IMG/VR virus record: IMGVR_UViG_3300025106_000003
Span: 1-56,064 of that record
Reading direction: 5' to 3' (one strand)
Length of the DNA: 56,064 bases
DNA from: a virus
Lineage: Duplodnaviria > Caudoviricetes
Positions 21,036-52,174 of this stretch are shown here, piece after piece. The notes below the pieces were generated by a model, which was given only the letters and a program-made list of their open reading frames with translations, did not search any database and was not told the DNA's origin. The position numbers were made by a program, and so were the translations under genes. The number at the start of each line of letters is the position of its first letter. Position 1 is the first letter of the stretch.

Positions 21036-21247
21036 TTGGAACTCTACGTTCTGTCGCAAGCACCATTTCAGCGCAAGACGGGGAAACTGTAGAGGTATGC
21101 GTAATTAAAAAACCAACGACTAGAAGGGGGAAGTCTGCGACCTTCAATGTTGGGGAGACGGTAGTTATCCTAGCCCAAGAGGAGTACCATAAAATTTTAC
21201 ACAAGAAAAGATCGCCAATGCCATTTGCAAACTATGAAGAATTTTAA
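21029..21247 (+). CDS. hypothetical protein
   Basis: 72-aa ORF overlapping both neighbours. Confidence 0.5.
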   Translation: MVIGTLRSVASTISAQDGETVEVCVIKKPTTRRGKSATFNVGETVVILAQEEYHKILHKKRSPMPFANYEEF

Positions 21248-29231: not shown

Positions 29232-30234
29232 CAATAAACCGACTGTCGCACTTTCCGCCTCCAAGATTAAAACACTTCAAACCTGCTCTTGGCTGTATCA
29301 CTGCAATTATGAAATTAAACTCCCTCAAGGCAGTAATGATGGGGCGAGGAGGGGATCGTGCGTGCATGAAATTCTAGAGCTTTTGACAAAAAACCGACAC
29401 AAAAAATATATAGATTTGATAGCGTCAGCTGAGCAGCCTTGCGAGGTAAAAGCTATAGAAAAATTAATGACTGCAAAATTTAAAAAACTCGAACTCGAAA
29501 AAGTAGAACCGGTCAAGCCGCTAAGCGGAAAAGTTTCCAATGAGACAAACTGGGATTGCGTGTGGAACATGCTCAAATTTACGATACAAAAAGAATACCT
29601 AGATATTGGAGATAAAAAAATTATTCATTCCGAATATGAATTTGACATGGAAAATGAATCTCCACGCTATAAAGTAAGAGGGTTTATAGACAGGCTATCC
29701 GAAGAGGATGGCGTGATAGAGATTTTGGATTTCAAAGGAAGCGCGCGCAAATTTAAAGGAGATGAAGAGTCGAGCAACGTACAGGCTATGATATACTCGT
29801 TGGTGGCAAGAAAAATATGGAAGCATTACAAGAGATACAGGGCTAATTTCTTTTTTATGAGATTCAAAAAAGACCCGTATCAATGCAATGAATTTTCAGA
29901 TGAGGAACTTAAAGGGTTTGAATCGTATCTTGAATATGTCACCGAAATCATTGAAAACTTCGACAGCAAAACTGCGGTGTCGAACATGGCCTCAGAATCA
30001 AAAGAGAAGTCATGGCTTTGCGGCAGGGGCAAATGGCAGTGTCCGTATAAAAAACCATTTTTTTTCTTTGTCGTAGAGGATGAGGCAGGCAAGCAGCTTT
30101 CATCGCACCTTTCCCACAAGGAGGCCGAGGAGGCTGCTTTAAAAATAAAGGATAAAAAGGTGAATATCGAAATGAAGCATTATCATGGATGCCCAAGCTG
30201 GAAAACGCTTGACAGCGACGAAAATCCGTTTTAA
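29224..30234 (+). CDS. PD-(D/E)XK exonuclease (RecB/Cas4-like)
   Basis: LSAS..TC, RGSCVH, GFIDR, ILDFK, Q..IY, C-terminal Cys cluster. Confidence 0.8.
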   Translation: MDNNKPTVALSASKIKTLQTCSWLYHCNYEIKLPQGSNDGARRGSCVHEILELLTKNRHKKYIDLIASAEQPCEVKAIEKLMTAKFKKLELEKVEPVKPLSGKVSNETNWDCVWNMLKFTIQKEYLDIGDKKIIHSEYEFDMENESPRYKVRGFIDRLSEEDGVIEILDFKGSARKFKGDEESSNVQAMIYSLVARKIWKHYKRYRANFFFMRFKKDPYQCNEFSDEELKGFESYLEYVTEIIENFDSKTAVSNMASESKEKSWLCGRGKWQCPYKKPFFFFVVEDEAGKQLSSHLSHKEAEEAALKIKDKKVNIEMKHYHGCPSWKTLDSDENPF

Positions 30235-30244
30235 ACTGCAAAAA

Positions 30245-31009
30245 GTGAACATACTTCCATTTTTTAAATCTCATTACTCCATCAACAAGAGCATCCTAAC
30301 TCTTGACAAGGATCATGCCTCAAACAACGGCCCAAAGTCGATCATCAAGTTGGCGCAAGACTACGGGGTTTCTGACCCATTCTTGGTGGACGATAATCTA
30401 TCAGGATTTCTTGAAGCGTACTACAACGCAAAAGATGCGAACGTAAAGCTCAACATGGGCGTCAGGATTACGGTCTGTGATGACATGGACAAGAAGGATA
30501 AGGAGAGCTTAAAAAACGAATCCAAATATATCATCTTTTTGAAGAAGTCCAAGGGATATGACACGCTTTTTAAGATTTATTCTCACGCATCAACAAAAGG
30601 GCTTTATTATATCCCTCGCATAGACATGAAAACTTTGGAGTCTATGTGGTCAGACGATCTAGCATTGGGGGTGCCATTCTACGACAGTTTTCTGTTTAAA
30701 AATCATTTCACGATCTGCAATATTATCCCTCCCCAGTTCTGGTGCGAGCCAACTTTTTTCATCGAACAAAACGGACTGCCATTTGATGAGCGCTTCGGTG
30801 AAAGTTTAAAGGCGTATTTGGATACGGCTGGCTTAACTGCGCCGCTCCCCTGCCAGTCCATCTTTTATGAGCAGAAGGATGACTTCTTGGCTTATCTTAC
30901 CATGAGATGCATCGGGAAACGCACTACTTTACAAAAACCAAATCTAGATTTTATGTGCAGCGACCAGTTCTGCTTAGAATCATGGGAGGAAAAATGCAAG
31001 ACGAACTAA
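30245..31009 (+). CDS. stand-alone PHP domain of DNA polymerase III alpha
   Basis: KSHYSI..SIL, VDDNLSG, GY..L.KI.S, YYIPRID; GTG start at 30245. Confidence 0.7.
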   Translation: MNILPFFKSHYSINKSILTLDKDHASNNGPKSIIKLAQDYGVSDPFLVDDNLSGFLEAYYNAKDANVKLNMGVRITVCDDMDKKDKESLKNESKYIIFLKKSKGYDTLFKIYSHASTKGLYYIPRIDMKTLESMWSDDLALGVPFYDSFLFKNHFTICNIIPPQFWCEPTFFIEQNGLPFDERFGESLKAYLDTAGLTAPLPCQSIFYEQKDDFLAYLTMRCIGKRTTLQKPNLDFMCSDQFCLESWEEKCKTN

Positions 31010-31629
31010 TACGATTTGATAAAACTAGTAAGTTTCTCTTTCTCGATTTCGAGACTGAGGGGCTTTGCCTTAACCATAGATTCAATAAGCCTTGGCAGAT
31101 GTCTCTTTTGAAGTCGGTTAACGGTCAGAAGGTAGGCTCGCAGGAGGTGTGGATTAAGTGGCCGAAATTCAAATTTTCCAAAGGCGCAAGAATGCTGGCC
31201 CATTCATTTAGTGAATCTAAAATGGAGCAAGATGGCATCTCCCCCAAGGCAGCGCTTGCAATTTTAGACAAAGCCCTGTCGGAAACAGATTACCTTATCG
31301 GCCATAACCTGCTAGGCTTCGATGTTTTCATCATCAAAGCTATGTATGAGGCTTGCGGACAAAAAATGCCCAAGCTGCCAACTATCATAGATACTTTCCC
31401 CATTGCCAAGGGGGTTATAAATAATCTGCCCTACAAGGCTGGCGAGGATTTCTATTTTTACCAATACAAGCTCATCAATGAGATCATCAAAGGCTCAAAA
31501 ACAAGCCTTTCCGCGCTCGCCAAATACTATAATATTGAAATAGACGAGGGTAGATTGCACGATGCGACATACGATTTAAGTTTAAATTTAGCTATATGGA
31601 ACAAACTCAAATTTCAAATTCAATTGTAA
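30994..31629 (+). CDS. DEDDh 3'-5' proofreading exonuclease (DnaQ-like)
   Basis: LDFETEG, GHNLLGFD, IDT, LHDATYD. Confidence 0.85.
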   Translation: MQDELIRFDKTSKFLFLDFETEGLCLNHRFNKPWQMSLLKSVNGQKVGSQEVWIKWPKFKFSKGARMLAHSFSESKMEQDGISPKAALAILDKALSETDYLIGHNLLGFDVFIIKAMYEACGQKMPKLPTIIDTFPIAKGVINNLPYKAGEDFYFYQYKLINEIIKGSKTSLSALAKYYNIEIDEGRLHDATYDLSLNLAIWNKLKFQIQL

Positions 31630-33416
31630 GTTTTACGTCTAACTTTGAGAAGTTGGATCTGCCACTCTACGGGGTGCGCTGCCCAAAGATCGAAGTGGAT
31701 AAAAAGTTTCTCGATTCTATCGGTATTGATAGTTTTGAAGATAATCATGATCTTCTGCGCCAACTTTGTAATGCCAGCTTCAAACGGCATATGCCGAAGT
31801 GGAAAGAGATGGGCTACGATATTGAGGAATATAAGGCGAGAGTGCGCCGCGAGGTGGAAACACTCAACAAGCTAGGCTTTGTTGACTACATCCTAATTAT
31901 TTGGGATGTGTTTAACTTCTGCAAGAAAGAAGGAATCCCTGTCGGCCTTGGTCGAGGAAGCGCGGCATCGAGCTTGGTTCTATATCTTTTGGGGGTCACA
32001 GGTGTAGACCCTATTAAATATAAGCTGCTGTTTGAGAGATTCGTTTCTGATACACGAGCTAAAAAGACGGTTGTTGACGGTGTCACTTATTTGGACGGAA
32101 GCATGTTGGCGGATATTGATAGCGACATTTGCTACTATCGCCGCCACGAGGTTGTTAAATATCTGGACAAGAAATATCCAAACCGAACCTCCAAGATGCT
32201 TACGGTATCCACCCTCTCTGGAAAGGCTCTTATTAAAGATTGCGGAAAGATCATCGGTGAAAAAGATGAGAGCGAGATGAATAAAGTCACCTCTCTTTTC
32301 CCGTCAAAATTCGGCAAGGTCGCGGAGGTTGAAGAGGTGTACGCCAACGTACCAGAATTCACAACTTGGGCGGACGAGAATAAGCTGGTATACTCAATCG
32401 CTTGTAAATTAAAAGACCTTATTAGAAATAAGGGGGTGCATGCTTCGGGAACGCTCGTCGGCTTTAATGAGTTGACGCAGACTACTCCAGTAGAGCTTTC
32501 TGCGGACAAGGAGACTGTCTCTGGATTCACTATGGACTGGGCTACCAAGGTTAATCTTAAACTTGACTTGCTTGGCTTGAAATCAGTATCTGTCATCGCT
32601 GAGGTCGAAAGGCTTACAGGCGTAAAATACATGGAGGTGGACTTGGAAGATTACGATACAATCTACGCGCACCTACAGGATTTGAAGGCCGCAAAGGGTA
32701 TTTTCCAAATTGAGGCAGACACCAACTATAAGGTGTGCCGCGAGGTTAAACCTAAGAACCTTGACCAGCTTGCGGCTGTGGTGGCCATCGCACGTCCCGG
32801 CGCATTAGCTTTCACCAAGCAGTACGCAGACTACGCACAGACGGGGGTATTTCCAGAGAGCTTCCCACAGATCGACGAGATTCTAAAAGATACAGGCGGC
32901 GCAATTCTTTACCAAGAGAGTCTTATGGCCATTGGAAACAAGGTCTTTGGCTTGAGCCTCAACGAGTCCGAAACCCTTCGTAAGATCGTGGGCAAAAAGA
33001 AAGTCGCGGAAATGCCTAAATGGGAACAGGTCATTAGGGATAACGCCAAGAGGCTTAAACTCCCTGACGAGGTCGCTGATTTTTACTGGAAGGCTCTTGA
33101 CGAAAGCGCAAACTATTCCTTTTGTAAGTGTCTATCGCCAGAGACAATTGTACAAAAAGACAGTTTGGAATATGTGCCAATGTGCGAGGTAAAAAAAGGG
33201 GACAAAATTCTCAGCTATAACCCAGACTCCGAAATGGATGAGAGCGTGGAGGTCATTGATATAATGCACAATTCTACTGAAATGTTTGAATTTGAAATGG
33301 AGGACGGCAGGACAATAACATGCTCAATGGAGCACAAGTTCATGTGTGAGGACAAAAAAATGAGAAAAATTTCAGAAATTTTAAGGACAGGCGAGAAAAT
33401 TATGTGTATAGAATGA
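31596..33416 (+). CDS. dnaE: DNA polymerase III alpha N-part fused to split-intein N fragment
   Basis: GLGRGSAASSL, LLFERF, DIDSD, GVHASG, KLDLLGL, RPG, YQE; then CLSPETIV intein start. Confidence 0.9.
   Translation: MEQTQISNSIVSFTSNFEKLDLPLYGVRCPKIEVDKKFLDSIGIDSFEDNHDLLRQLCNASFKRHMPKWKEMGYDIEEYKARVRREVETLNKLGFVDYILIIWDVFNFCKKEGIPVGLGRGSAASSLVLYLLGVTGVDPIKYKLLFERFVSDTRAKKTVVDGVTYLDGSMLADIDSDICYYRRHEVVKYLDKKYPNRTSKMLTVSTLSGKALIKDCGKIIGEKDESEMNKVTSLFPSKFGKVAEVEEVYANVPEFTTWADENKLVYSIACKLKDLIRNKGVHASGTLVGFNELTQTTPVELSADKETVSGFTMDWATKVNLKLDLLGLKSVSVIAEVERLTGVKYMEVDLEDYDTIYAHLQDLKAAKGIFQIEADTNYKVCREVKPKNLDQLAAVVAIARPGALAFTKQYADYAQTGVFPESFPQIDEILKDTGGAILYQESLMAIGNKVFGLSLNESETLRKIVGKKKVAEMPKWEQVIRDNAKRLKLPDEVADFYWKALDESANYSFCKCLSPETIVQKDSLEYVPMCEVKKGDKILSYNPDSEMDESVEVIDIMHNSTEMFEFEMEDGRTITCSMEHKFMCEDKKMRKISEILRTGEKIMCIE
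33129..33416 (+). mobile_element. split intein N fragment (95 aa)
   Basis: CLSPETIV block A; ITCSMEHKF block B; stop after GEKIMCIE. Confidence 0.85.
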
Positions 33417-34351
33417 GCGCATTAAAACTAGATTCTACGCGAACCATCCCAGTTTGTATGTTTGAAACATGCCTAATAGACGGCAGGACAAGAAAACAAA
33501 TATGTGATCTTTTTCCAGCACGAAATGGAGGGGCGTATTATTTAGACAAATTCTGCAATCATCTTAAATATAATCATCAGACAAGCTTGATCAGTTATTG
33601 TGAGCGCTATTTTAATTTCTCATGGCCTACATGTCCGGTTAAAAAAACAAAGCTGGGCTATTGTATTAGCGGGAAGGGCGTAAAAATATCAGAATATTCA
33701 CTGGGTAGTGTAAATAAGAAGAATTGCGCCAAATTTTCAGATGGGTGCAAAAGATTATCCGAAGAAAGAAAGGGCAGAGGGAATCCTATGTATAAAAAGA
33801 CCCTTTGGAATAAGGGTAAGAATTATGAAATACCTTCCAGACAAGGAAAACCACTTTCCGAGATGCATCGCGCAAGCTTAAAAGAGGCCAGAGCAAAAAG
33901 CCCATATAAAGCTAGACATACAACCCCACACTCGGAACAGACAAAGAAAATCTTAGCTATTCGTCAGGCTGAAAAATATGCAGCGGGGATTTTTAAGCGC
34001 AGAACAGGTATAGAAATAAAAGTCGAACAATTTCTATCAACATTAAAATTAAAAGAAAGTTATATAGAACAGCATCAGGTCAAATATTTTACATTGGATT
34101 TCGCTTTACAAAATGGCAAAGTAGGCATAGAGTGTCAGGGTTCATTCTTTCATATTGATCCAAGAGTTTATCCGAACGGTCCAATCTGTGCTGTTCAAAG
34201 GCGAAATTTTGGAAGAGATAAGGCTAAAAGGAAATATTTAGCCAAGAGAGGTTGGACGATTATAGAACTTTGGGAAACAGAAATAAACAGCGGAGAATTT
34301 AAAGAAATACTATTGTGCAAGCTATCGGAATTAAATCTGTTAGAAGACTAG
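33413..34351 (+). CDS. free-standing homing endonuclease (NUMOD3-like repeats plus Vsr/DUF559 domain)
   Basis: GRGNPMY, HSEQTK, LDF...GIECQGSFFH, RDKAK..YL..RGW.II.LWE; ATGA overlap. Confidence 0.75.
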   Translation: MSALKLDSTRTIPVCMFETCLIDGRTRKQICDLFPARNGGAYYLDKFCNHLKYNHQTSLISYCERYFNFSWPTCPVKKTKLGYCISGKGVKISEYSLGSVNKKNCAKFSDGCKRLSEERKGRGNPMYKKTLWNKGKNYEIPSRQGKPLSEMHRASLKEARAKSPYKARHTTPHSEQTKKILAIRQAEKYAAGIFKRRTGIEIKVEQFLSTLKLKESYIEQHQVKYFTLDFALQNGKVGIECQGSFFHIDPRVYPNGPICAVQRRNFGRDKAKRKYLAKRGWTIIELWETEINSGEFKEILLCKLSELNLLED

Positions 34352-34428
34352 GACAACAAAACTCTATTGATTTTGAGGTCAATAGCAGATTTCATAATTT
34401 TTATGCGGAGGGCCTTGTTACCTCAAAT
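34315..34428 (+). mobile_element. split intein C fragment (38 aa)
   Basis: IKSVRRLG...DFEV...HNFYAEGLVTSN followed by Ser. Confidence 0.85.
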
Positions 34429-35535
34429 AGTCACGCTGTAAGCTATAGCGCGATGGCTGCACTGACCGTCTTTTACAAATTCAACTATCCAAAGGAATTC
34501 TTCTTGGCTCTGTTGAGAATGGCCAAGCATGAAAGTGACAGCCTGACAGAGATTGCTGCGATTTCACGAGACATGGGGGATTTTGGCATTGAGCTTCTTC
34601 CCCCTGATTTAAATAAGAGCGGCGAGGACTTCGAACTAGAGGGCAATAATATCCGATTTGGATTATCCGCAATCAAGGGTATCAGTACCAAGATTATGTC
34701 AAAGTTCTCTGGATTCAAAGACAAGCATGCCTCGCGCATCGACCTCTTCCTTTCCGCAAAACAGGCAGGAATCTCCATCGGAGTGCTTTCCGCCCTCATT
34801 CAAGCTGGCGCAATCGAATCACTTCACAATCGTTCTCGCAGCTACATGGTTCTTGAGGCTCAAACTTGGAATATTCTCAAGGATAGGGAGAAATTGCTCG
34901 TGAAAGACCTTATCGAATCAGGCGAGTGTAGGGATGTATTGTCGTGCATCAAAAAACTCAATGAGGAGATCAAGAACGACAAGGGCATGCCGCAAATCAA
35001 GGATAGTCGATTCTCCACGATCAAGCGAGATTACGAGAAATATAAATCCATTTATTTGATGAACAGTCGAAACGAGGATCTTGCGAATTACTTCTATGAG
35101 AAAGAACTACTTGGTCGTTCGTATAGCCAATCTCTCTCCTCTATATTCAGCAAGAAATGCGAAAAGTTGATGTCTATCAAGGAGTTCCAAGAGGAACTGA
35201 ACCCGAATGAAAAGGGTCTTATTGTGGGCGTGGTATCTGAAAAGGTTTCTAAAACCTCCTCAAAGGGCAACCCCTACATCAAATACACAATCCACGACGA
35301 GAGCGCGCAGATTGACTGTTTTATCTTCTCCACGGCACATTCCGACAAAATTGGACTGATCCGTGAGGATAACGGCGGCAAACTTCCAGAGGAAAAGGAT
35401 ATTGTTGTACTCAAGGGTATGCGAAAAGACGAGACTGCCTGCTACGTTGACAAACTTGGCATCCAAAGCTCCAAGATCTTTATGAAATTGAAGGACTTAA
35501 AGGATGCAGAGGAGACTTCAGATGAAAATAGTTGA
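34315..35535 (+). CDS. dnaE: split-intein C fragment fused to DNA polymerase III alpha C-part
   Basis: IntC ends HNFYAEGLVTSN, then SHAVSY, YPKEF, LLPPDLNKS, IRFGLSAIKGI, OB fold. Confidence 0.9.
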   Translation: MQAIGIKSVRRLGQQNSIDFEVNSRFHNFYAEGLVTSNSHAVSYSAMAALTVFYKFNYPKEFFLALLRMAKHESDSLTEIAAISRDMGDFGIELLPPDLNKSGEDFELEGNNIRFGLSAIKGISTKIMSKFSGFKDKHASRIDLFLSAKQAGISIGVLSALIQAGAIESLHNRSRSYMVLEAQTWNILKDREKLLVKDLIESGECRDVLSCIKKLNEEIKNDKGMPQIKDSRFSTIKRDYEKYKSIYLMNSRNEDLANYFYEKELLGRSYSQSLSSIFSKKCEKLMSIKEFQEELNPNEKGLIVGVVSEKVSKTSSKGNPYIKYTIHDESAQIDCFIFSTAHSDKIGLIREDNGGKLPEEKDIVVLKGMRKDETACYVDKLGIQSSKIFMKLKDLKDAEETSDENS

Positions 35536-37984: not shown

Positions 37985-38077
37985 CCTTCGGTAGTTTAAC
38001 GATAAAACCCCTCGCTTATAACGAGTTTAGCGGTAGATTTCCGCGCAATGCAGGTTTGAATCCTGCTCGAAGGACCA
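37985..38077 (+). tRNA. tRNA-Ile(UAU) with long variable arm
   Basis: CTCG-CTTATAA-CGAG; V arm GCGG/CCGC; T stem GCAGG/CCTGC; ACCA. Confidence 0.7.
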
Positions 38078-38080
38078 ATT

Positions 38081-38181
38081 TAGACTGTAGTTCAGCGGTA
38101 GATCGCAACCATACTATGTGGGAAAATACTCCTAAAAAGCGTATGGCTCTGATGACACAGGTTCGAATCCTGTCAGTCTAA
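38081..38181 (+). ncRNA. tRNA-like RNA with expanded anticodon arm
   Basis: TAGACTG/CAGTCTA, D arm, ACAGG-TTCGAAT-CCTGT; CCATAC/GTATGG closes a 26-nt insert. Confidence 0.6.
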
Positions 38182-38332: not shown

Positions 38333-38408
38333 CGCTTACGGGACCGCCAGCGTGGTCGCCCGACTTGGGATCGGGATATTCAGCAGAGGGCAGCACTCTG
38401 GTAGGCGA
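38333..38408 (+). tRNA. tRNA-Pro(UGG)
   Basis: CCCGA-CTTGGGA-TCGGG; T loop GGCAGCA. Confidence 0.7.
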
Positions 38409-38676: not shown

Positions 38677-38752
38677 GGGTGCGTGACGGGAATGCATACC
38701 TAGTTGGTCGAGAGCCAACTGCTTGTGAGGTCGAGACTCACCGCGCCCACCA
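38677..38752 (+). tRNA. tRNA-Leu(GAG), short variable loop, C33
   Basis: GTTGG-TCGAGAG-CCAAC; GGGTGCG/CGCGCCC ACCA. Confidence 0.65.
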
Positions 38753-39433: not shown

Positions 39434-39507
39434 GCATCATTAGTTTAGTGGTAAAACTTTTGCCTTCCAAGCAGAGTTCGTCGGTTCGATTCCGACATGA
39501 TGCTCCA
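39434..39507 (+). tRNA. tRNA-Gly(UCC)
   Basis: TTTGC-CTTCCAA-GCAGA; U73 CCA. Confidence 0.85.
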
Positions 39508-39510
39508 TAA

Positions 39511-39619
39511 AAGCGTGTGGCGCGATAAAGCGCGTAAAGTCGCCAGCGTGTAGGTAACATGCGGATAACTACACCAACAGACCCGCCTCTTGTGGGTTAA
39601 AATCCTATCGCGCTTACCA
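39511..39619 (+). ncRNA. tRNA-like RNA with replaced/elongated anticodon arm
   Basis: AAGCGTG/CGCGCTT+ACCA; D stem GCGC; T arm GTGGG-TTAAAAT-CCTAT; GTGTAG/CTACAC helix. Confidence 0.55.
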
Positions 39620-39624
39620 ATTTA

Positions 39625-39784
39625 AAGAACGTGGCGGAAGTCAAACGCTTTCGTTTAAGTCCTCTATAGCTCAGAGTAGAGCATCGGCATTGTCCGAAGG
39701 TCAGAGAAGTAACGAACTCTTAGATGCAAAGACAACGAAGACACAAAAGCTTAGTGTGAAAAGTCCAAACCTTTTCCGTTCTTT
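39625..39784 (+). ncRNA. Leu-like tRNA whose anticodon loop contains a nested degenerate tRNA (39660-39728)
   Basis: Outer AAGAACG/CGTTCTT, TGGCGGAA..AACGC D arm, TTCGT/ACGAA stem, V arm, T arm; inner TAGCTCAG..TAGAGCA, TCGG/CCGA, AGGTC, AGAG/CTCT. Confidence 0.6.
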
Positions 39785-39786
39785 AA

Positions 39787-40272
39787 TTATTTAAGAGATT
39801 CAGATTGTTTTACAATTTGCTTACATAATAAAATAAGCTCGTCGTAAAGTAAATCTTGTTTAATTCTATTGGCTTTGTTAGAAGTTAGTCCGCAATTTTC
39901 TAGGGAGGAGTCTCCTCCGCGAGATGTAGGAATAATGTGATCTAATGAATAATCTTCTGGTTTATCTAAATCTATCAATTCCCCAGTCAAATAACATTTT
40001 GGGACAGGGCCGATTTTATTTAAAAGATCCTTTAGAGTAAACCGAATTATTTTAGGTCTGGTTTTACTTTTCGGATTGCCTCGATAGAAGTCTGACATCT
40101 TAGTAACCAATGGGTTTCTTTTGCGATAATTTTTATACGCCTGACTCATTGACTTTTTTCGGTTTGGACTAAAATGATAAATTAAAGTCCACTTAGATAT
40201 TTGAAGTTCATCGGAAATTTCCTGATAAGTTTTTCCGTTTTCTAACATTTTTATTATTTTTTCTTTGTCCAT
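39787..40272 (-). CDS. HTH-HNH homing endonuclease
   Basis: GKTYQEISDEL HTH; CYLTG...SLDHIIPTSRGG...ENCGL..KAN. Confidence 0.8.
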   Translation of the reverse strand: MDKEKIIKMLENGKTYQEISDELQISKWTLIYHFSPNRKKSMSQAYKNYRKRNPLVTKMSDFYRGNPKSKTRPKIIRFTLKDLLNKIGPVPKCYLTGELIDLDKPEDYSLDHIIPTSRGGDSSLENCGLTSNKANRIKQDLLYDELILLCKQIVKQSESLK

Positions 40273-40329
40273 ATGCAATACTTACACTTGTAAGACAGTA
40301 ATGTGAAACTTGCAATGGATATATTAAAT

Positions 40330-40414: not shown

Positions 40415-40491
40415 CGCTACTGAGCAGGAACGGTGACAGGCACGAGACTGAAAATCTTGGGAACTCGGTTCGACTCCGAGAGTAGCGGCCA
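40415..40491 (+). tRNA. tRNA-Phe(GAA)
   Basis: CGAGA-CTGAAAA-TCTTG; CTCGG-TTCGACT-CCGAG. Confidence 0.8.
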
Positions 40492-40987
40492 ATGAAAACA
40501 TGGTAGGCTCTATGCAGACCTCCGGTAAAATCCGGCGTGTTGGGTTAGTCGATAAGACCCTCCAATTTCCCGAATACCAAGGCGGGTTCCGCTGACCAGA
40601 TCCAGTGTGGTAGCTACTCAGGCGAGATAGCGATAACGAGATGCGTAAAAAGCCCTTAACGGTTGCAATCAGTGAGCCACAAAAAAGGTTAGTTATTCGG
40701 GATTTAAATTTTCACAAAACCTAGATCGGGGTATACAAACGACGAAGTTGCGCTAGTAGGTCGCTAAAATACGCTGTGCGGTAATAGGATAATGTAACGC
40801 AATACAGAAAGCTAGAAGTTAGGGGAGGCAACTCTCAGTCCTTTTAGTCCTTTGTGAAAAATTTTGAGAGCAGCATTAACTTGCTTGAAATGGGTTAAGT
40901 CCTAAACTCTCATGGTGTGCAGACCTATCCTGTAATAGTAGCAATCCTCTACGAATTCGGCTCGATAAGAGTATGGATAAATTTTAT

Positions 40988-41062
40988 AGGTTAGAGTATC
41001 AACAGCATGATTACCTCTCTGTCGAAGAGGATCGAGCGGGGCAGCACCCGTCTAACCTGCCA
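40988..41062 (+). tRNA. tRNA-Asp(GUC)
   Basis: CCTCT-CTGTCGA-AGAGG; G73 CCA; T loop GGCAGCA. Confidence 0.75.
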
Positions 41063-41070
41063 ATTTAAAT

Positions 41071-41157
41071 ACATGGGTGGAGGAATGGTAAACTCAGCGG
41101 GTTGTTACCCCGCCTTTCGAAAGAAAATTGAACGTTCAAGTCGTTCTCCATGTGCCA
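41071..41157 (+). tRNA. tRNA-Asn(GUU) with variable arm
   Basis: GCGGG-TTGTTAC-CCCGC; CTTTCGAAAGAAA variable hairpin; GCCA. Confidence 0.75.
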
Positions 41158-41162
41158 TATAA

Positions 41163-41250
41163 GCCAACGTGACCGGAATTGGTATCGGCCCGTTTTTGTA
41201 AATCGGTATGGGGAAACCCTTTGCAGGTTCGACGCCTGTCGTTGGCTCCA
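41163..41250 (+). tRNA. tRNA-Thr(UGU) with variable arm
   Basis: GCCAACG/CGTTGGC TCCA; loop TTTGTAA; GGG-GAAA-CCC V arm. Confidence 0.7.
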
Positions 41251-41259
41251 ATAATTTAT

Positions 41260-41343
41260 GCAATCGTCTGTTAGCGGCAATACAAACTGACTTTTAATCA
41301 GTCGCCCATTTGGGCTTCGAGAGTTCGAGTCTCTCCGGTTGCA
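41260..41343 (+). tRNA. tRNA-Lys(UUU) with variable arm
   Basis: ACTGA-CTTTTAA-TCAGT; GCCCA-TT-TGGGC V arm. Confidence 0.75.
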
Positions 41344-42445
41344 AATCTTCTAAGTTAATATATTCTTTTTCATACCATAATTCAAATGAATACCCATGTT
41401 TAAGATATTCTTGACGTTTATCTATCATATTTTGGTAATCTAGGGTATATTTACTTTTCACCTCAATTATTTTATTATACGCTGGAAGATAAAAATCTGG
41501 AATTGCTACTCGATTCATCAGTTTTTGAGAATCCCAATAAACGATGCGTAATCCTTCTACCTCATAATCTATTTTTTGTTCATCAAAAATTTTGGCTAAT
41601 TCTAATTCGTAAGATGATCTATAAAAAACTCGCTTGTTGTTCCATGTAGTATGGAACCCATGCTTATATCTTAAGCAGGATGGTGGTGTTTGCCTGCCAG
41701 ATATTAGTGCGTTATTATGAGATTGAGATAAGTTTCTAAAACCTATACCAAGGCACGTTAACAATTTAGATAAATTTCCAACATTATTGTGGTTATATTT
41801 GTCGCAGATTTGTTGTAGAGATAGCTTTCGATCCCAGTAATCTTCTCGTAGCATTAGGGAAACACGATCAAATTCGCGATAAGCGTCAACGCTCCCCAGT
41901 GTGGTGAGATCAAACCCAAAGTATTTATTTAGCCCTTTAAATAATTGAGGGCTTTTACAGATTTCCTTACGCTCACATTCAGATTTCCCACAAATATTAC
42001 ATTTTCTTATTTTTGCATTATATTGTGCTGCTTTTCTCACTTTTCGTAACTTCCTACAGCCAGAACATATTTTTTTCCCCATATTTTTTGAATATAATAA
42101 TATGTCCGCGCCACATTTTATACAGTTGCTTGATATTTTTGGTGCATGCGCGTTGCTATATATGGCAGCACAGGAGCGTGAACAAAATAAGTGTTTGCTT
42201 TTTTTAACCTGACATATCGGGCGCGTAAACTTACTATCACATACCTCGCATGAATATTCTTGAGCGGTTGTTTTTCGTTTCGTATCGCAAAGTCTAGAGC
42301 ATATATCGCTTTGAGAACCGCTTATTATCGAGTGGTATATATTCTTTTTAGTTCTTTGAAATACTTTATGACAAGCATCACATTCTAAATTCAACAGCGT
42401 TTTTTGTGCAGCATTTTGGTATTCAGATTCGGTATAAAGTTTCAT
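41294..42445 (-). CDS. putative homing endonuclease (Zn-finger repeats plus TnsA-like PD-(D/E)XK domain)
   Basis: Multiple CxxC/FCSRSC; YRSSYE...PDFYLP..IIEVKS; 3' end overlaps tRNA-Lys antisense. Confidence 0.7.
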   Translation of the reverse strand: MKLYTESEYQNAAQKTLLNLECDACHKVFQRTKKNIYHSIISGSQSDICSRLCDTKRKTTAQEYSCEVCDSKFTRPICQVKKSKHLFCSRSCAAIYSNAHAPKISSNCIKCGADILLYSKNMGKKICSGCRKLRKVRKAAQYNAKIRKCNICGKSECERKEICKSPQLFKGLNKYFGFDLTTLGSVDAYREFDRVSLMLREDYWDRKLSLQQICDKYNHNNVGNLSKLLTCLGIGFRNLSQSHNNALISGRQTPPSCLRYKHGFHTTWNNKRVFYRSSYELELAKIFDEQKIDYEVEGLRIVYWDSQKLMNRVAIPDFYLPAYNKIIEVKSKYTLDYQNMIDKRQEYLKHGYSFELWYEKEYINLEDLQPERLELSKPKWATD

Positions 42446-42600
42446 ATATGTATAATTACACTTATCAACTCCTTTTGGGAGCATCTTTCTATTACCACCG
42501 GACCCACCATTTTACGTAAAAGAAATTCCTCTTTCCATTCGGGAATAGGTGGAAAGTGATAAGGAGGGGTAAAAGTCCCAACCTTCCCACATTTTAGTAT

Positions 42601-42677
42601 GGTCTTATCATCCAACTGGCAGGATTCCCGTCCGATTAACGGGGCATGATTGGGTTCGAATCCCTCTAAGACTACCA
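42601..42677 (+). tRNA. degenerate tRNA, apparent GAU anticodon
   Basis: GGTCTTA/TAAGACT ACCA; CCCGT-CCGATTA-ACGGG (C33, U37). Confidence 0.5.
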
Positions 42678-43169: not shown

Positions 43170-43742
43170 ATGAAATCAAAATTGTACAAACTTATCTTCG
43201 CTTTAGCGTTTTCGGTTGCGTTTTGCTGCTGCGATGAAACAGTCGCGCAGCTTCCCGCGCCGAACCAGATCGTTGTTAATACGGGCGGCACTTTATTTCT
43301 CAGCGGAATAGAAGTCATTCCAAATAACACAAATATCAAATTAAATGGAGGCGAAATAGACATCATTGGGGGCGGCACAGAAACCGTAGGAAAATTGACT
43401 CTCTCAAAAGACTCCGCAATCAACATCGACACGCTGATGAATTTTTCCCTTTATTTTAAGAATAGCTCTATGGAGAAGTGGAAGGGAAACTTAATCATAA
43501 CAGGATGGACTGGAGACGCTTACGGAGGATACACGACTAAAATATTTGTAGGCAATAACGCTAATGGATTAAATCAAAATCAGCTTAACTCAATATCGTT
43601 TGCTGGTTTTGGAAATGGCGCGATACTTCTTGGAAGCGGCGAACTGTGTCCGATTGCCGTGCCAGAACTCAATCCTTGGACTGGAGCGGTGGCGATCTTC
43701 CTGCTGATAGTGGCTATTGAATGCCGCATGAAAAAAAGATAA
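43170..43742 (+). CDS. secreted PEP-CTERM-type surface protein
   Basis: Signal peptide; Gly/Asn/Thr beta-helix-like body; C-terminal AVPE + TM helix + RMKKR. Confidence 0.7.
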   Translation: MKSKLYKLIFALAFSVAFCCCDETVAQLPAPNQIVVNTGGTLFLSGIEVIPNNTNIKLNGGEIDIIGGGTETVGKLTLSKDSAINIDTLMNFSLYFKNSSMEKWKGNLIITGWTGDAYGGYTTKIFVGNNANGLNQNQLNSISFAGFGNGAILLGSGELCPIAVPELNPWTGAVAIFLLIVAIECRMKKR

Positions 43743-43886
43743 TTTCCCTATAGCTAGGGGTTACGGGTGCGGAATAATTAAATAGTTCGCACCTAGAGCA
43801 GATAGATAGACAATTGGATAGGTTCGATTCCTTAACGCTGGTGCGCTCTTATTGTTGAGAACGTCCGTGAAATCCTGCTAATTTTT

Positions 43887-44029
43887 TGATCCGTGGAGAA
43901 TGGGAAACTCACTAGCGATAGCAATGAATAATACAGCAAAAGAAGTTGGCTCATAATCGACCGTTCTGTTAGTTAATGTCTATAAGTCTTGAAACATGCT
44001 AGAGGTCTGGTTCGAATCCAGCGGATCTA
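43887..44029 (+). ncRNA. initiator-tRNA-like RNA with CAU anticodon hairpin on a long stalk
   Basis: TGATCCG/CGGATCT (1:72 mismatch), GAG/CTC D stem, CTAGC/GCTAG, apical GTTGG-CTCATAA-TCGAC, CTGG-TTCGAAT-CCAG. Confidence 0.6.
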
Positions 44030-44035
44030 TTTTAT

Positions 44036-44106
44036 GGAGCGATAGTTTAAATGAAGAACACTGCAATAATGCAGAGGTGTGTGATCGTAATCCGCAAACT
44101 CCTCCA
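44036..44106 (+). pseudogene. pseudo-tRNA with 4-nt anticodon loop
   Basis: GGAG/CTCC TCCA; D arm; CTGCA-ATAA-TGCAG. Confidence 0.45.
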
Positions 44107-44192
44107 TTCTGTCGAAGATGGCGTTTAAATCGCCACTGTAGCGCAAAGAGACAGTTAGCTCAACCCTAGAGCATCGACGCAATTTTTTATAT

Positions 44193-44271
44193 GGTGTACG
44201 AATCCGAAGTGACCGAGGAAATGGACTGTGAATCCATTCATTAGCGAGTTTAAGTCTCGTCGTATACCCCA
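44193..44271 (+). tRNA. tRNA-His(GUG)
   Basis: G-1:C73 8-bp acceptor; ATGGA-CTGTGAA-TCCAT. Confidence 0.8.
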
Positions 44272-44274
44272 AAT

Positions 44275-44349
44275 TGCGATGTCGGCAACAGTAGTCACTC
44301 TCACTCTGAATGAGAAAAAGTCTTGGGGCGGAACCAAGCATCGCAGCCA
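44275..44349 (+). tRNA. tRNA-Gln(CUG)
   Basis: U1-A72, G73; TCTCA-CTCTGAA-TGAGA. Confidence 0.75.
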
Positions 44350-44596: not shown

Positions 44597-44692
44597 ACGG
44601 ATGGGGCTATGGTAGCCGAGAACTCTCCAAAGGTTCTGTGCTTAATCGGAAGAAGCGGCGTCGATAGGGTTCGATTCCCTACATCCGTGCCA
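44597..44692 (+). tRNA. tRNA-Trp(CCA) with long variable region
   Basis: GAACT-CTCCAAA-GGTTC; ~28-nt V region; TAGGG-TTCGATT-CCCTA; GCCA. Confidence 0.65.
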
Positions 44693-45179: not shown

Positions 45180-45597
45180 GGGGGCGTTTTGGTTTCGATT
45201 TGTTGTCGTACTGCCTCCTTACAAGCAGAGGAAATCATCTTGGCCTCTATAAAATGGTGATAACAAAAAATAAATGCTAAGTTCAAAACGAACCTAGTCT
45301 CCAGCCTCAAGGGGTTGATTAAGGAAGTCTCCGACTTCTTTGCTCCTTCCCAAGAGTTGGCTTTCGCCTAAGAAATTAGGAGAGAAAGGATAGTTGCGAG
45401 AGGTTAAACCGGAAATTTGTATCGCAATGATTCTGACCGCAAAAGAAGGAAAGATGACAATGGTTGATGTCATTTAAATAAACAACTGCGGAAATAACAT
45501 CAGTAACAATACGCGACAGTGATAATCCTGATTGAAGCTTGTAAGTAATAGGAACATAAAAATAACAAACACGCGGGTTCGAATCCCGCCGCTTCCA
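45180..45597 (+). ncRNA. ssrA: tmRNA
   Basis: GGGGGCG..GGTTTCGA 5' end; GCGGGTTCGAATCCCGCCGCTTCCA 3' end (G3:U70); tag ORF 45276-45371 ending LAFA*. Confidence 0.85.
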
Positions 45598-45599
45598 TT

Positions 45600-46193
45600 C
45601 TATTTAAGATGAGATAAAAACTCTATAAATTCATCATGAGATAATTCACCCTTGGCATAATTTATATTTCTGCTTACGAACTGAACATTTCCCTTCTGAT
45701 AAGGAAGGGCAGAGTCTATTCTGTCAACAGATGCATATAGATAGGTTTTTACTTTTAAATGATTTGAGTGAGTGGGAAGTAATAGCTTTATTTTCGAATA
45801 TGGGCATATTCCGTCTTGAGATTCCCATTGTTCTTTCAGATCAACTAGAGACAATAAGTTTGGTTTACGATTTTTGTTTGAAATACATTTAAGTAAATAT
45901 CGAAATGGGGTAAGCTTATCAGAGTTATCATATCCAGATAACATCTTCCCCTCTGAGCGAAGTTTTTTTAACGTTGTTTTAATTATTTCTATCTGTTGTG
46001 GATTATTACGCTGACATCCGCATCCTTTAATTTTTCCCCTAACTAAATCATAAAGATCACAAGTTTTAATAGTGCCACAATCGCATTCGACTTCGACTTT
46101 GCGATGAGTAATGAACTGTTTGATTGTTAAGTGAGCAATTTTAGTATTTAAGTATAATTGTTGATTTTTAGTTAATTTTTCTTTATTATTCAT
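45600..46193 (-). CDS. HNH-like homing endonuclease
   Basis: CDCG..GCGC; Q.GICPYS...SVDRIDS..Y.KGNVQFV..IN.AK. Confidence 0.75.
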   Translation of the reverse strand: MNNKEKLTKNQQLYLNTKIAHLTIKQFITHRKVEVECDCGTIKTCDLYDLVRGKIKGCGCQRNNPQQIEIIKTTLKKLRSEGKMLSGYDNSDKLTPFRYLLKCISNKNRKPNLLSLVDLKEQWESQDGICPYSKIKLLLPTHSNHLKVKTYLYASVDRIDSALPYQKGNVQFVSRNINYAKGELSHDEFIEFLSHLK

Positions 46194-46240: not shown

Positions 46241-46316
46241 GCGGCAGTAGGAGAATGGTAGATCCACTTCCCTCCAAGGAAGACACTTGCGGGTTCGACT
46301 CCCGTTTGCCGCGCCA
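46241..46316 (+). tRNA. tRNA with 6-nt anticodon loop (Gly- or Trp-derived)
   Basis: GCGGCAG/TTGCCGC GCCA; CTTCC-CTCCAA-GGAAG. Confidence 0.55.
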
Positions 46317-47695: not shown

Positions 47696-47703
47696 CCCAA
47701 AAT

Positions 47704-47791
47704 GGGCATGTGGCGCAGTGGCGAGACGCATTCCGCTTAAGACGGAATACCCTTGTGGTAAACAACGTGGGTTCGAATCCCACCTAGCCCA
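47704..47791 (+). tRNA. tRNA-Leu(UAA)
   Basis: TTCCG-CTTAAGA-CGGAA; long V arm; A73. Confidence 0.8.
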
Positions 47792-47883
47792 TCAAGAATG
47801 GCAAAGGAATAATAGTTTGGAAAAAGTGCCAAAAAACTCCAAGAACTCCACAAGGCCGATTGGCAGAAATATTGGGAATAACC

Positions 47884-47918: not shown

Positions 47919-48275
47919 ATGAAATCACAAAATAAATTCAGAGTCTGGGATCATCAGACATCGACATTCTCATTTTTCGGATTGAGAGAATTATTCGGCC
48001 ATCTGCCAAATGATATTCCCGACAACCAAATTTGTCAGTTTACGGGGCTACAGGATAATTTCTGGCAAGATGTTTACGAGGGTGATGTTGTTCGTATATC
48101 AGAAAGCAATGATCCAGAAGACCCATCTTGGTTTGTTGGTGATGTTTCTTTTGTGAACGGCGGATTTAGAATTGGCCGCACCGAACCAATTACAGATTAT
48201 ATTTGTTGTGATGGTAAGCGTTATTATTTCGATGGTGAGGTCATTGGCAATATTTTCGAACAAAAAATCATATGA
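47919..48275 (+). CDS. YopX family protein
   Basis: KFRVWD...QFTGLQD....VYEGDVV...EVIGNIFE. Confidence 0.85.
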   Translation: MKSQNKFRVWDHQTSTFSFFGLRELFGHLPNDIPDNQICQFTGLQDNFWQDVYEGDVVRISESNDPEDPSWFVGDVSFVNGGFRIGRTEPITDYICCDGKRYYFDGEVIGNIFEQKII

Positions 48276-48778
48276 GTTTTGAAATTTGGAAAGATGTATT
48301 GGATACTAATGGGAAGTATAAGGTCAGCAATTTAGGAAACGTGCTGAGTTTTGTTAGAGGAGAAAAGAAACTATCGTATAGCGTAACAAAAAAAGGATAT
48401 GCGCGTTTAAGAATTTTTGATAAACAAATGTATATACATAGATTAGTTGCAGAGGCGTTCATTCCCAACGTAGAATTAAAACGACAAGTAAATCATAAGG
48501 ATGGTAACAAACTTAATAATTGTGTTGATAATTTAGAGTGGGCAACGCAAGAAGAAAATATGCAACACGCCCACGATAATAAACTTATCGAAACGATTGG
48601 AGATAATAACGGAAGATTCCTTGGTAAAATCGCAGGATTTAATTCTTCCGGCAAAAAAGTTGTAGAGTTTTGTGGTAGAAAAGATATGGAAGATAATGGA
48701 TATACTAACGTATGCGTATATAATTGCGTCAACGGCAAACAGAAAACATACAAAAGATTGACATTTAAAAGAATTTAA
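48272..48778 (+). CDS. NUMOD4-HNH homing endonuclease
   Basis: EIWKD...YKVSNLGNV; IHRLVAEAFIPN..QVNHKDGNKLNN...NLEW. Confidence 0.9.
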   Translation: MSFEIWKDVLDTNGKYKVSNLGNVLSFVRGEKKLSYSVTKKGYARLRIFDKQMYIHRLVAEAFIPNVELKRQVNHKDGNKLNNCVDNLEWATQEENMQHAHDNKLIETIGDNNGRFLGKIAGFNSSGKKVVEFCGRKDMEDNGYTNVCVYNCVNGKQKTYKRLTFKRI

Positions 48779-49852: not shown

Positions 49853-49943
49853 GGATCGTTAAATAGACAGGGTTCTATAATTCTTTGCTAAAGAAATTGT
49901 GCCGTATCCAATCGCGCATGACTTTCGAGTAGTCAGCGATCCT
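49853..49943 (+). tRNA. tRNA-Ser(GCU)
   Basis: TTCT-TTGCTAA-AGAA; long V arm. Confidence 0.7.
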
Positions 49944-49948
49944 CTTTC

Positions 49949-50039
49949 GGATGATGAAATCTAGCGGCCTAGATCACGGCTTTGAATCCCGTTGGAGGTA
50001 TGAGAACCATGCCTTTGAGATCGACACTTACTTCATCCG
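49949..50039 (+). tRNA. tRNA-Ser(UGA)
   Basis: ACGG/CCGT stem with loop TTTGAAT; long V arm; G73. Confidence 0.65.
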
Positions 50040-50288
50040 CTTTTTTAAATAAAAATCCCACGCTGATAACAGTAAAGCCTGTTATTAGAGGACAAGTTCG
50101 ACAATGCATAACTCGTAGAAGGAGAAGAAATTCATTATTACTTCATATCAGCATTAACCCTAAAGTTCCTAGAATGTGAGTTATTCTATGACGGAAAGGT
50201 TGGGGCGGTTGCTATTAGCAAGCAACTACTAGAAATAGTAAGATAAATGTGGGAAGAAACACAGGATGTCGGCTATTTTATTTAAATT

Positions 50289-50380
50289 GGGTGGTAAATC
50301 AGAAGGGCTATCTGACTTGATTTCGAAAATCAAAGGAGCCGATTAATTATCGCGCTTGGGCTTCGATGCTCTGCCATCCT
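50289..50380 (+). tRNA. tRNA-Ser(CGA)
   Basis: TTGAT-TTCGAAA-ATCAA; long V arm. Confidence 0.7.
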
Positions 50381-50385
50381 CATAA

Positions 50386-50476
50386 GGAGATGTAATCGGT
50401 CAGGGTACCGAACCATATTGGAAATATGTGTGTGCCGTAACCATTCGTGCATGGCTTTCGATTAGTCACATCTCCT
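50386..50476 (+). tRNA. tRNA-Ser(GGA)
   Basis: CATA-TTGGAAA-TATG; GGAGATG/CATCTCC; long V arm. Confidence 0.7.
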
Positions 50477-50509
50477 CCCTTCTTTCTCAAACTGTTCTAA
50501 AATAATCTC

Positions 50510-51287: not shown

Positions 51288-51632
51288 ATGATTCCAGCAC
51301 CCTACAATTTACCTACAGGCTACAGAGGAGACAGCTACGGCCCAATAGCTTTTTATTTAAACAATCCATCTGGCGCAATTATGCTTGATGGTGCGACTGG
51401 CGCGGCGCAGGTAAGATCAAAAAGGGATCGTCGCGTAGTCCTCCAATGGTTGTCATCGGACGACTCCATTACGATCTCTGGGAACGCCGTGGTATTGAAT
51501 ACAAAGGTCGGCGCTGACATGCGTATTCCAGCAGATGTATACGACTGGGATCTCCAAATTTCATCAGGAGAATATACCGACACCTATCTTAGAGGAGAAT
51601 TTCCTGTCATCCAAGATATCACTGAAATTTAA
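51288..51632 (+). CDS. putative baseplate/tail adaptor (BppU N-terminal-like)
   Basis: RGDS...LDGAT..AQVR...YDWDLQI...YLRG.F.V..DIT pattern. Confidence 0.55.
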   Translation: MIPAPYNLPTGYRGDSYGPIAFYLNNPSGAIMLDGATGAAQVRSKRDRRVVLQWLSSDDSITISGNAVVLNTKVGADMRIPADVYDWDLQISSGEYTDTYLRGEFPVIQDITEI

Positions 51633-51646
51633 TTCATTTTTTTACA

Positions 51647-52174
51647 ATGGCGAATGATGAAATAACAGTGACGGTGGTGGTTTCGGGATCGGTGCAGCAG
51701 CCGATAGAGGTTTCTGTAGCTAATGAGCCGCAGCCGCCCGTTCAAGTCGTGGCAGAAACGGCGGGGGTCAAGTCGGTCAACGGCAAAGCTGGTTACGTCA
51801 ACTTAGATAAGAACGACATAAACTTGGGAAACGTCGAAAACATCAGCATTACTGGTGTTTCTGGTCATCTTCAGCAACAATTTGACAATTTGGATCTAAA
51901 TTATGCAACGGACGAGCAATTAGTTGCATTAAGTTGCAAATCTTACAAGAATACTTACGCAATATCTACAGGAGTGGAGAGTGAGTGGTATGGATTCAGC
52001 GGTGTTTTTCCAAGCTCTCCGTTTTTAGTCGCTAATATCGTAATGCCGACAGACGCTTCGGGCAGCTACTACCACACCCTCAGCGGTATTTCAACCTCTG
52101 GATTTTACGCAAACTACAGCATGGAGGTAGCGCAGACAGGCTACCTTCTCAATGTTCTAGCAACAATAGGATAA
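51647..52174 (+). CDS. tail-fibre-associated protein
   Basis: VKSVNGKAGYVNL..DINLGNVEN phage tail repeat. Confidence 0.6.
   Translation: MANDEITVTVVVSGSVQQPIEVSVANEPQPPVQVVAETAGVKSVNGKAGYVNLDKNDINLGNVENISITGVSGHLQQQFDNLDLNYATDEQLVALSCKSYKNTYAISTGVESEWYGFSGVFPSSPFLVANIVMPTDASGSYYHTLSGISTSGFYANYSMEVAQTGYLLNVLATIG

Follow-up and report, generated by a model that had tools for sequence, protein, structure and literature searches.

A probable tRNA-Leu(UAA)-type gene, split within its anticodon loop and possibly disabled, in a nuclease-riddled phage tRNA array

The anticodon loop of bacterial tRNA-Leu(UAA) is a known host site for group I introns, and in those bacterial genes the insertion falls within the anticodon itself. 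Group I introns in the anticodon loops of bacterial tRNAs are also mentioned in the available text of a study dealing with the T4 endonuclease SegB (PMC2330249). The tRNAs of Lak megaphages contain conserved introns of another kind, described as 'enigmatic', one of which 'itself may encode a tRNA' (Devoto et al., 2019, PMC6784885). According to the accessible part of that report and its Table S6, the Lak inserts are 79–114 nt long and lie one base after the anticodon, and all follow one plan, in which a hairpin at the 5' end is joined by an A/T linker to a tRNA-like minihelix whose canonical T arm closes the insert at the 3' junction; the tRNA-like element of one insert is recognized by Rfam (PMC6784885). 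The inserts are conserved across cohorts and precisely absent from some variants (PMC6784885, accessible part). The concept of a nested-tRNA intron is, thus, already in print for phages, the accessible text giving no mechanism of removal, and no such mechanism appears in the titles and abstract openings of the papers listed for phage tRNA introns since 2019, which include the Lak study and papers on crAss-like, jumbo and huge phages.

Phage tRNA clusters also harbour nucleases. T4 SegB is a homing endonuclease encoded in a tRNA cluster; it cuts within tRNA genes, recognizing a T-loop motif, and drives the co-conversion of flanking tRNA genes (PMC2330249, available text). HNH genes linked to tRNA arrays have also been described (PMC8421152, available text). 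The available portions of these two papers make no mention of a tRNA-derived insertion in an anticodon loop.

The locus considered here (39625–39784, plus strand) lies in a window of 56,064 nt, the whole stretch of DNA analysed, which corresponds to the entire IMG/VR virus record IMGVR_UViG_3300025106_000003. This record is estimated to be about 36% complete, and its probable source is a groundwater metagenome. The window contains replication genes of bacterial type, encoding DnaB, a RecA-like protein, a sigma-70 domain and a Pol III alpha subunit. The last of these (30185–35535) is in pieces, split across several overlapping ORFs, and a GDP-mannose dehydratase ORF (21225–23363) has a LAGLIDADG domain in its middle, in an intein-like arrangement. 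A dense array of tRNA genes occupies the plus strand from about 37.4 to 50.5 kb, in which ARAGORN at its default settings finds 22 tRNAs and a tmRNA, and Rfam 21 tRNAs and a tmRNA at its gathering score. By manual count, CCA is encoded by about 15 of the 22 tRNAs. Many array tRNAs have odd T or D loops and score below default thresholds, yet carry a CCA end. The tRNA-like genes missed at default settings (38333–38407, 44194–44267, 38677–38752, 42601–42677, 44275–44349 and 49853–50478) were found by relaxed ARAGORN or by a strict stem search, and several have CCA ends. Undetected or dead members are likewise a feature of known tRNA arrays, as far as the available texts go (PMC2330249, PMC8421152). 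Type II-shaped tRNAs with long variable arms (37985–38077, 41071–41344) have the anticodons Ile(tat), Asn(gtt), Thr(tgt) and Lys(ttt); isolated T-loop and D-arm motifs are also found at 43740–44280, and a stretch of about 580 nt within the array (40490–41070) lacks both ORFs of at least 40 aa and Rfam matches at the gathering score.

HNH endonuclease genes are interspersed among the array tRNAs at 39787–40278 (minus strand), 45600–46193 (minus) and 48272–48778 (plus), together with a nuclease-like ORF at 41294–42484 (minus). The first of these genes encodes an HNH homing endonuclease of 163 aa (best E value 3e-14 against PHROG HNH families, 5.8e-8 against Pfam HNH_4), and its stop codon lies 2 nt from the 3' end of the element at 39625–39784. 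In every context examined (an IMG/VR contig, L002, Rhodococcus phage Weasels2 and Tenacibaculum phage Gundel_1), homologues of this gene sit in tRNA arrays, flush with tRNA genes; the L002 homologue (44% identity), the single locus recovered with the HNH gene as bait, adjoins a different tRNA, a 94-nt tRNA-Ile(tat) at L002:3463–3556, so that a long Ile(tat) recurs in this related contig. Elsewhere in the array, nuclease genes on the opposite strand end at or inside the 3' ends of the tmRNA gene (45180–45600, with the nuclease gene 45600–46193) and of the tRNA-Lys gene (41259–41344, with the nuclease gene 41294–42484), which is the same layout as at the element. The arrangement resembles that of T4 SegB, in the available text, in having a free-standing endonuclease gene inside a phage tRNA cluster and beside tRNA genes (PMC2330249). 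It differs in the enzyme, SegB being of the GIY-YIG type, whereas the nuclease here is an HNH protein.

The outer body of the element has 25 base pairs, with no mismatch and a single G-U pair, distributed over five tRNA helices (acceptor, D, anticodon, variable and T), all of which had been proposed in an earlier, sequence-only reading of this DNA and were found exactly where it had placed them. The acceptor stem pairs AAGAACG (39625–39631) with CGTTCTT (39777–39783), at pair probabilities of 0.59–1.0, and is followed by a discriminator T (39784); its pairing can be extended into the flanks to 10 bp (39622–39631 with 39777–39786). The D arm (39634–39648) has a 3-bp stem, GCG/CGC (39634–39636/39646–39648), and a 9-nt loop, GAAGTCAAA, from which GG is absent. 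The 5' strand of the anticodon stem, TTTCG, and the first six loop bases, TTTAAG, occupy 39649–39659, and the last loop base, A38, and the 3' strand, CGAAG, occupy 39735–39740, so the stem (39649–39653/39736–39740) has its two strands separated by 82 nt; deletion of 39660–39734 leaves the loop TTTAAGA. A variable-arm hairpin of type II tRNA shape (39741–39757; ACAC/GTGT stem at 39741–39744/39754–39757, 9-nt loop, pair probabilities 0.86–0.94) is followed by a T-arm-like hairpin (39758–39776; 6-bp GAAAAG/CTTTTC stem at 39758–39763/39771–39776, pair probabilities 0.94–0.99), the 7-nt loop of which, TCCAAAC, has a C in place of U55. The acceptor/T geometry is off by one, with 7 + 6 = 13 bp against a canonical stack of 12 bp; ARAGORN alternatively sees a 7-bp acceptor, a T.C mismatch and a single spacer base. 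No CCA is encoded at the 3' end of the outer body, where TAATTA comes next. The spliced product would also be a non-canonical tRNA, in its T-loop, its D-loop, its acceptor/T stack and its lack of CCA.

The closest paralogue of the outer body is an uninterrupted tRNA-Leu(taa) at 47703–47793 (plus strand), as judged from ARAGORN, Rfam and alignment; for the element as a whole, the window contains no paralogue. The spliced 17-nt anticodon arm is identical, in register, to the arm of this tRNA at 47731 in 13 of 17 positions, a match reached at only two places in the window on both strands, and the segment 39649–39659 accounts for 9 identities in 11 bases. When 14 tRNAs were compared with the spliced body, Leu(taa) scored highest (z 2.76, against 1.2 or less for the others). 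The outer D-arm motif, GTGGCGGAA..CGC, is of tRNA-Leu type; it occurs once in the window, against 0.05 matches expected, and is common to the 5' part of the tRNA-Leu(taa) at 47703. The likeness of the arm is accompanied by the 4-bp variable arm and type II shape of a tRNA-Leu(UAA) paralogue. A tRNA-Leu(UAA)-type body split at position 37/38, as originally claimed, is the best reading of these data, and the likeness to the paralogue places the insert at 37/38 independently of the ambiguity of ARAGORN described below. The element has two traits in common with group I tRNA introns, Leu(UAA) identity and an insert in the anticodon loop. It differs from them in that 75 nt is far below their size and the insertion lies at 37/38 rather than within the anticodon.

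Several observations bear on whether this frame is a member of the array. A strict search for five mismatch-free helices in tRNA order, with an anticodon loop of any size and with criteria set after the candidate had been seen, gave 19 matches on the plus strand of the window, all 19 in the array and including 39625–39783, with none on the minus strand and none outside the array. In 60 dinucleotide shuffles, the mean was 0.78 such frames per window on both strands and about 0.1 for the array strand. A strict frame somewhere in the window would, thus, be unsurprising, whereas one on the array strand and flush with its neighbours is surprising by chance. Directly upstream, between a tRNA-Gly and the element, lies a sub-threshold tRNA-like gene (39511–39619, plus strand; Rfam tRNA at 39511–39616, 21.9 bits, E = 0.026) with 34 + 21 extra nucleotides in an oversized anticodon region. 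Its CCA is at 39617–39619, so the element starts 5 nt past the 3' end of a tRNA, a tight packing typical of the array. The outer frame is a real array member, by the strict frame search, the packing and the paralogue likeness.

The 75-nt insert (39660–39734, plus strand) starts like the 5' third of a tRNA and continues with weak 4-bp hairpins and a 10-nt tail. Its 5' part consists of TCCTCTA, TA and then a D-arm motif at 39667–39682, of the pattern TAGCTCA..GAGC, which has three matches in the window, all on the plus strand of the array, against 0.17 expected. This motif is the sole tRNA-specific part of the insert. The other arms are 4-bp helices around loops of 6 and 10 nt, the 10-nt loop standing in the place of a T-loop; the inner acceptor/T stack would have only 4 + 4 bp, the 'acceptor' being four contiguous pairs. 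The sequence-only reading had seen a second, degenerate tRNA here. Neither ARAGORN, even at -ps70, nor Rfam, at E ≤ 10, makes a call on the insert, and of that claim only the D-arm motif is left. Counting back from U8 does put position 1 of the inner element at 39660, as that reading had claimed. The coincidence with the junction arises by construction, and deletions starting anywhere from 39659 to 39662 all give Leu(taa). No clear source for the insert was found among the 27 tRNAs of the window, the best z of 2.69 not being notable for 27 trials, and a search of the flanks of the insert and of the HNH gene for repeats or target-site duplications gave only short, non-collinear matches. From its letters, the insert is best described as an apparent tRNA gene fragment (5' acceptor strand, D arm and start of the anticodon stem) followed by unrelated sequence.

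The insert resembles those of Lak in its 37/38 site, its size (75 nt) and its tRNA-like features, in terms of the accessible text of that report (PMC6784885). Within the same text, the differences are equally clear. The outer tRNAs of Lak score 26–60 bits with tRNAscan, whereas the outer body here fails both Rfam and default ARAGORN. The Lak T arm, of GGTTCGA type, ends at the 3' junction, whereas the tRNA-like part here starts at the 5' junction, with no T-loop and with a 10-nt tail at the end of the insert. By eye against Table S6, none of the three parts of the Lak plan (5' hairpin, A/T linker and T-arm minihelix) is present in this insert.

Standard tRNA finders recognize the element poorly. 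The Rfam tRNA model (RF00005) has no match at E ≤ 10 over 39495–39900, and ARAGORN makes no call on the element at default settings or with introns allowed down to -ps90. The spliced form, with 39660–39734 deleted, is called as tRNA-Leu(taa) only at ARAGORN settings of -ps90 to -ps93. At -ps85 with introns, ARAGORN calls exactly 39625–39784, but as a Cys(gca) with a different insert, and it also makes 14 calls that are on the wrong strand or not in the array. As many as 45 deletions of the candidate lead to a tRNA call, the anticodon being that of Ile, Cys, Val, Ser, Phe, Thr or Leu. In control segments (358 of 231 nt from outside the array, with any deletion of 50–100 nt allowed), a call was obtained at -ps90 in 37 and at the level of the candidate (-ps93 or higher) in 18. 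By ARAGORN alone, the outer tRNA is no better than chance. Three control segments, 51462–51692 (minus), 52617–52847 (minus) and 54234–54464 (plus), gave calls at -ps98 to -ps102 with a deletion of 50–100 nt; these calls could be due to chance or could reflect extra tRNA-derived sequence beyond the array. Folding gives a similar picture. The fold energy of the element has a z of -0.75, 41 of 200 shuffles reaching an equal or lower energy, enforcement of the outer helices costs 3 kcal/mol relative to the MFE, and the pair probabilities of the outer D and anticodon stems are about 0.01–0.02; the thermodynamics of the element is uninformative. Of the original observation, the outer frame and its stems are present, whereas the body is not a standard tRNA and the inner tRNA is a D-arm motif only.

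Odd anticodon regions occur elsewhere in the array. By our own reading, at least six other tRNA-like genes have an anticodon loop that is not of 7 nt (38081–38181, 39511–39619, 43886–44030, 44597–44692, 46241–46316 and 40415–40488), and several carry CCA; the CCA-bearing genes at 46241–46316, 40415–40488 and 44597–44692 have loops of 6 or 11 nt. At 38081–38181 (plus strand; Rfam 41.9 bits), 42 nt stand in place of 13 nt of the anticodon arm, and ARAGORN reports an 'intron' of 21 nt. Three other IMG/VR contigs have the body of this gene, with its 8-bp acceptor and its D and T arms; in these copies the acceptor shows a compensatory change and the anticodon arm is oversized in a way of its own. 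The T arm of 38081–38181 is also that of a normal tRNA-Met(CAT) in a fourth contig (the loci compared being L031:326–429, L034:393–496 (minus), L035:393–496 (minus) and L033:326–429). In the rest of the array, ARAGORN at -ps90 with introns reports inserts of 72 and 21 nt and one call with four extra bases. The 72-nt insert is placed at 37/38 of a tRNA-Ala(agc) call at 43886–44030 (plus strand), and contains an anticodon-arm-like hairpin with the loop CTCATAA; no Rfam tRNA match was found for 43886–44030 at E ≤ 10.

The relatives recovered do not carry the locus. With a DNA Pol III fragment as bait, seven IMG/VR loci and seven JGI metagenome loci were recovered, all 60–64% identical, and in these neither the element nor a comparable array is present. 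The locus is carried by none of 39 loci (242.5 kb) searched. Pieces of the element, used as exact patterns against IMG/VR, had either no matches or chance ones in coding DNA, and the element is absent from eight virus records, each searched over its full length. Insert-type calls by ARAGORN (-ps90, introns allowed) were few in about 190 kb of related loci, with three in one locus, one of these being on a tmRNA. The sequencing runs listed as containing the stretch are the probable source run and one freshwater run in which its share is low and which has no cover over the element; there are no RNA runs among them. Contigs of the source run break at 39612–39641, with an overlap of 30 nt, and one of them follows the window to 39641, in the outer D-loop, before diverging; its loose end of 30 letters was not found in IMG/VR or in the genome collection. 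The divergence after 39641 may be a strain variant or a recombination point.

The account that best fits these findings, held tentatively at a little under an even chance, is that 39625–39784 is a tRNA-Leu(UAA) paralogue which has lost its function to a tRNA-derived insert, in an array riddled with nuclease genes. Direct observation covers the anatomy, the array context, the paralogue likeness and the nuclease gene next door. The insert, some 75 nt of DNA derived in part from a tRNA, would have entered a tRNA-Leu(UAA)-type array gene at 37/38, presumably when a break in the array was repaired or gave rise to illegitimate recombination, and the several homing-endonuclease genes of the array, one of them abutting the element, would provide the context for such a break. 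The locus would be transcribed together with the array, and its RNA may be trimmed at the ends, given that the acceptor and T helices are intact. An RNA of about 160 nt could not decode, so the gene would be disabled, and the decoding of Leu(UAA) would be left to the uninterrupted copy at 47703–47793. In favour of this account are the five fully paired helices, the restriction of strict frames to the array strand, the tight packing and the likeness to Leu(taa), as well as the fact that the interrupted gene is called by neither Rfam nor ARAGORN and that the insert has a D-arm motif without a complete tRNA. It is further favoured by the HNH lineage, which belongs to tRNA arrays, by the SegB precedent and by the other damaged or odd tRNA-like sequences of the array. 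It is weakened by the site, 37/38 being the canonical intron position and, as such, unlikely for a random insertion, by the second insert at 37/38 (72 nt, 43886–44030) and the Lak inserts at the same position, and by the lack of a source tRNA for the inserted fragment in the window. Since many apparently functional array tRNAs are also sub-threshold, a sub-threshold score is weak evidence of gene death. As for a homing-endonuclease scar, an adjacent nuclease of tRNA arrays and an interrupted anticodon loop are both found, and stem decay is not (0 of 25 pairs mismatched). An old pseudogene should have mismatches, so the 25 intact outer pairs suggest that the insertion is recent or that the body is under selection.

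Another explanation is a maintained, non-decoding RNA of tRNA shape, in which the body is functional and an extra domain replaces the anticodon loop. Such an RNA might act as a decoy or sponge for host nucleases that target tRNAs, or for tRNA-binding enzymes, or it might, by analogy, be comparable to the species I and II RNAs of the T4 tRNA region, which are stable RNAs. The intact stems and destroyed decoding loop of the element are as this explanation predicts, the array contains at least six other tRNA-like genes with anticodon loops that are not of 7 nt, several with CCA, and the 38081–38181 type recurs in three IMG/VR contigs with a compensatory acceptor change. This explanation nevertheless seems unlikely given that the element has no homologue in any search, the least canonical T-loop and no CCA, and that it folds no better than its shuffles, with a cloverleaf 3 kcal/mol over the MFE and D and anticodon pair probabilities of about 0.01–0.02.

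The intact stems, the 37/38 site and the second 72-nt insert (43886–44030) keep alive not only this explanation but also that of an intron. Nucleases, whether those of tRNA processing or others, would then cut the precursor at or near both ends of the 75 nt, and ligation of the exons would yield a working tRNA-Leu(UAA). A position at 37/38 fixed by the paralogue and the intactness of all outer helices are in keeping with splicing, as are the further insert-bearing calls in the array (72 and 21 nt), such calls being few in about 190 kb of related loci. Lak tRNAs have inserts with tRNA-like elements at the same position, according to the accessible text (PMC6784885). Splicing is quite unlikely all the same, as the inner element is not a tRNA by any tool, the Lak architecture is absent and the spliced product would be non-canonical (C55, a D-loop lacking GG, and no CCA). 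A Pfam scan of 44 ORFs found no RNA ligase, in agreement with what had been claimed for the window, although this counts only weakly against an intron, the record being only about 36% complete. Bacteria are not known to have a protein-dependent tRNA splicing pathway, which also counts against an intron. The earlier interpretation stands in its anatomy, a body of Leu(UAA) type split at 37/38, and finds no support for its processing mechanism, the inner element not being a recognizable tRNA and the spliced product being non-canonical.

Chance would require the element to be a spacer downstream of the HNH gene that looks like a cloverleaf once a free deletion is allowed. The controls point in this direction (37 of 358 at -ps90 and 18 of 358 at the candidate level), together with the 0.78 strict frames per shuffled window, the fold z of -0.75 and the 45 alternative deletions with calls. 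The strand, the flush position, the two D-arm motifs and the 13/17 arm match are each unlikely for a spacer, and jointly very unlikely, and real sequence outside the array has no strict-frame match; chance is an unlikely explanation. Readings other than those named here retain a small but appreciable share of the probability.

Some further candidates were rejected. Nested tRNA genes, in which an intact inner tRNA lies within broken outer shells of the same identity, do not describe the locus, the inner element never being called and the outer body being the intact one; a group I intron would need about 200 nt or more, against 75 nt here, and no Rfam intron or ribozyme family matches at E ≤ 10; and an archaeal or eukaryal protein-spliced intron would show a 3-nt bulge, a 4-bp helix and a 3-nt bulge, which were not seen by eye at 39659/39660 and 39734/39735. 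The virus, moreover, has bacterial hallmarks that speak against such an intron (tmRNA, Pol III alpha subunit, DnaB and a sigma-70 domain). A search for a terminator on the minus strand found no terminator-like site.

If the insert is a lesion, as in the preferred account of a disabled paralogue, the locus shows the turnover of tRNA arrays invaded by homing endonucleases, and serves as a warning that, in arrays of this kind, tRNA finders overlook genes as well as over-calling them. A bolder proposal, which must be considered a long shot, is that phage arrays beyond Lak carry partly tRNA-derived inserts of about 20–115 nt at 37/38 that are removed by end-processing enzymes and a ligase; 39625–39784 and 43886–44030 would be two of these, in a single groundwater phage of the 155-kb class, and the abutting HNH enzyme would target the insert-less allele. 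Were both removal and targeting true, this would be a tRNA version of the 'collaborative homing' of a free-standing nuclease and an intron, which has reportedly been described in work on cyanophage psbA. Removal of the insert would make this locus a second, independent case of Lak-like tRNA introns that are not of group I, in an unrelated and smaller phage, and would render the mechanism of the Lak introns testable on a short, simple substrate. It would also point to protein-dependent tRNA splicing in bacteria or their viruses.
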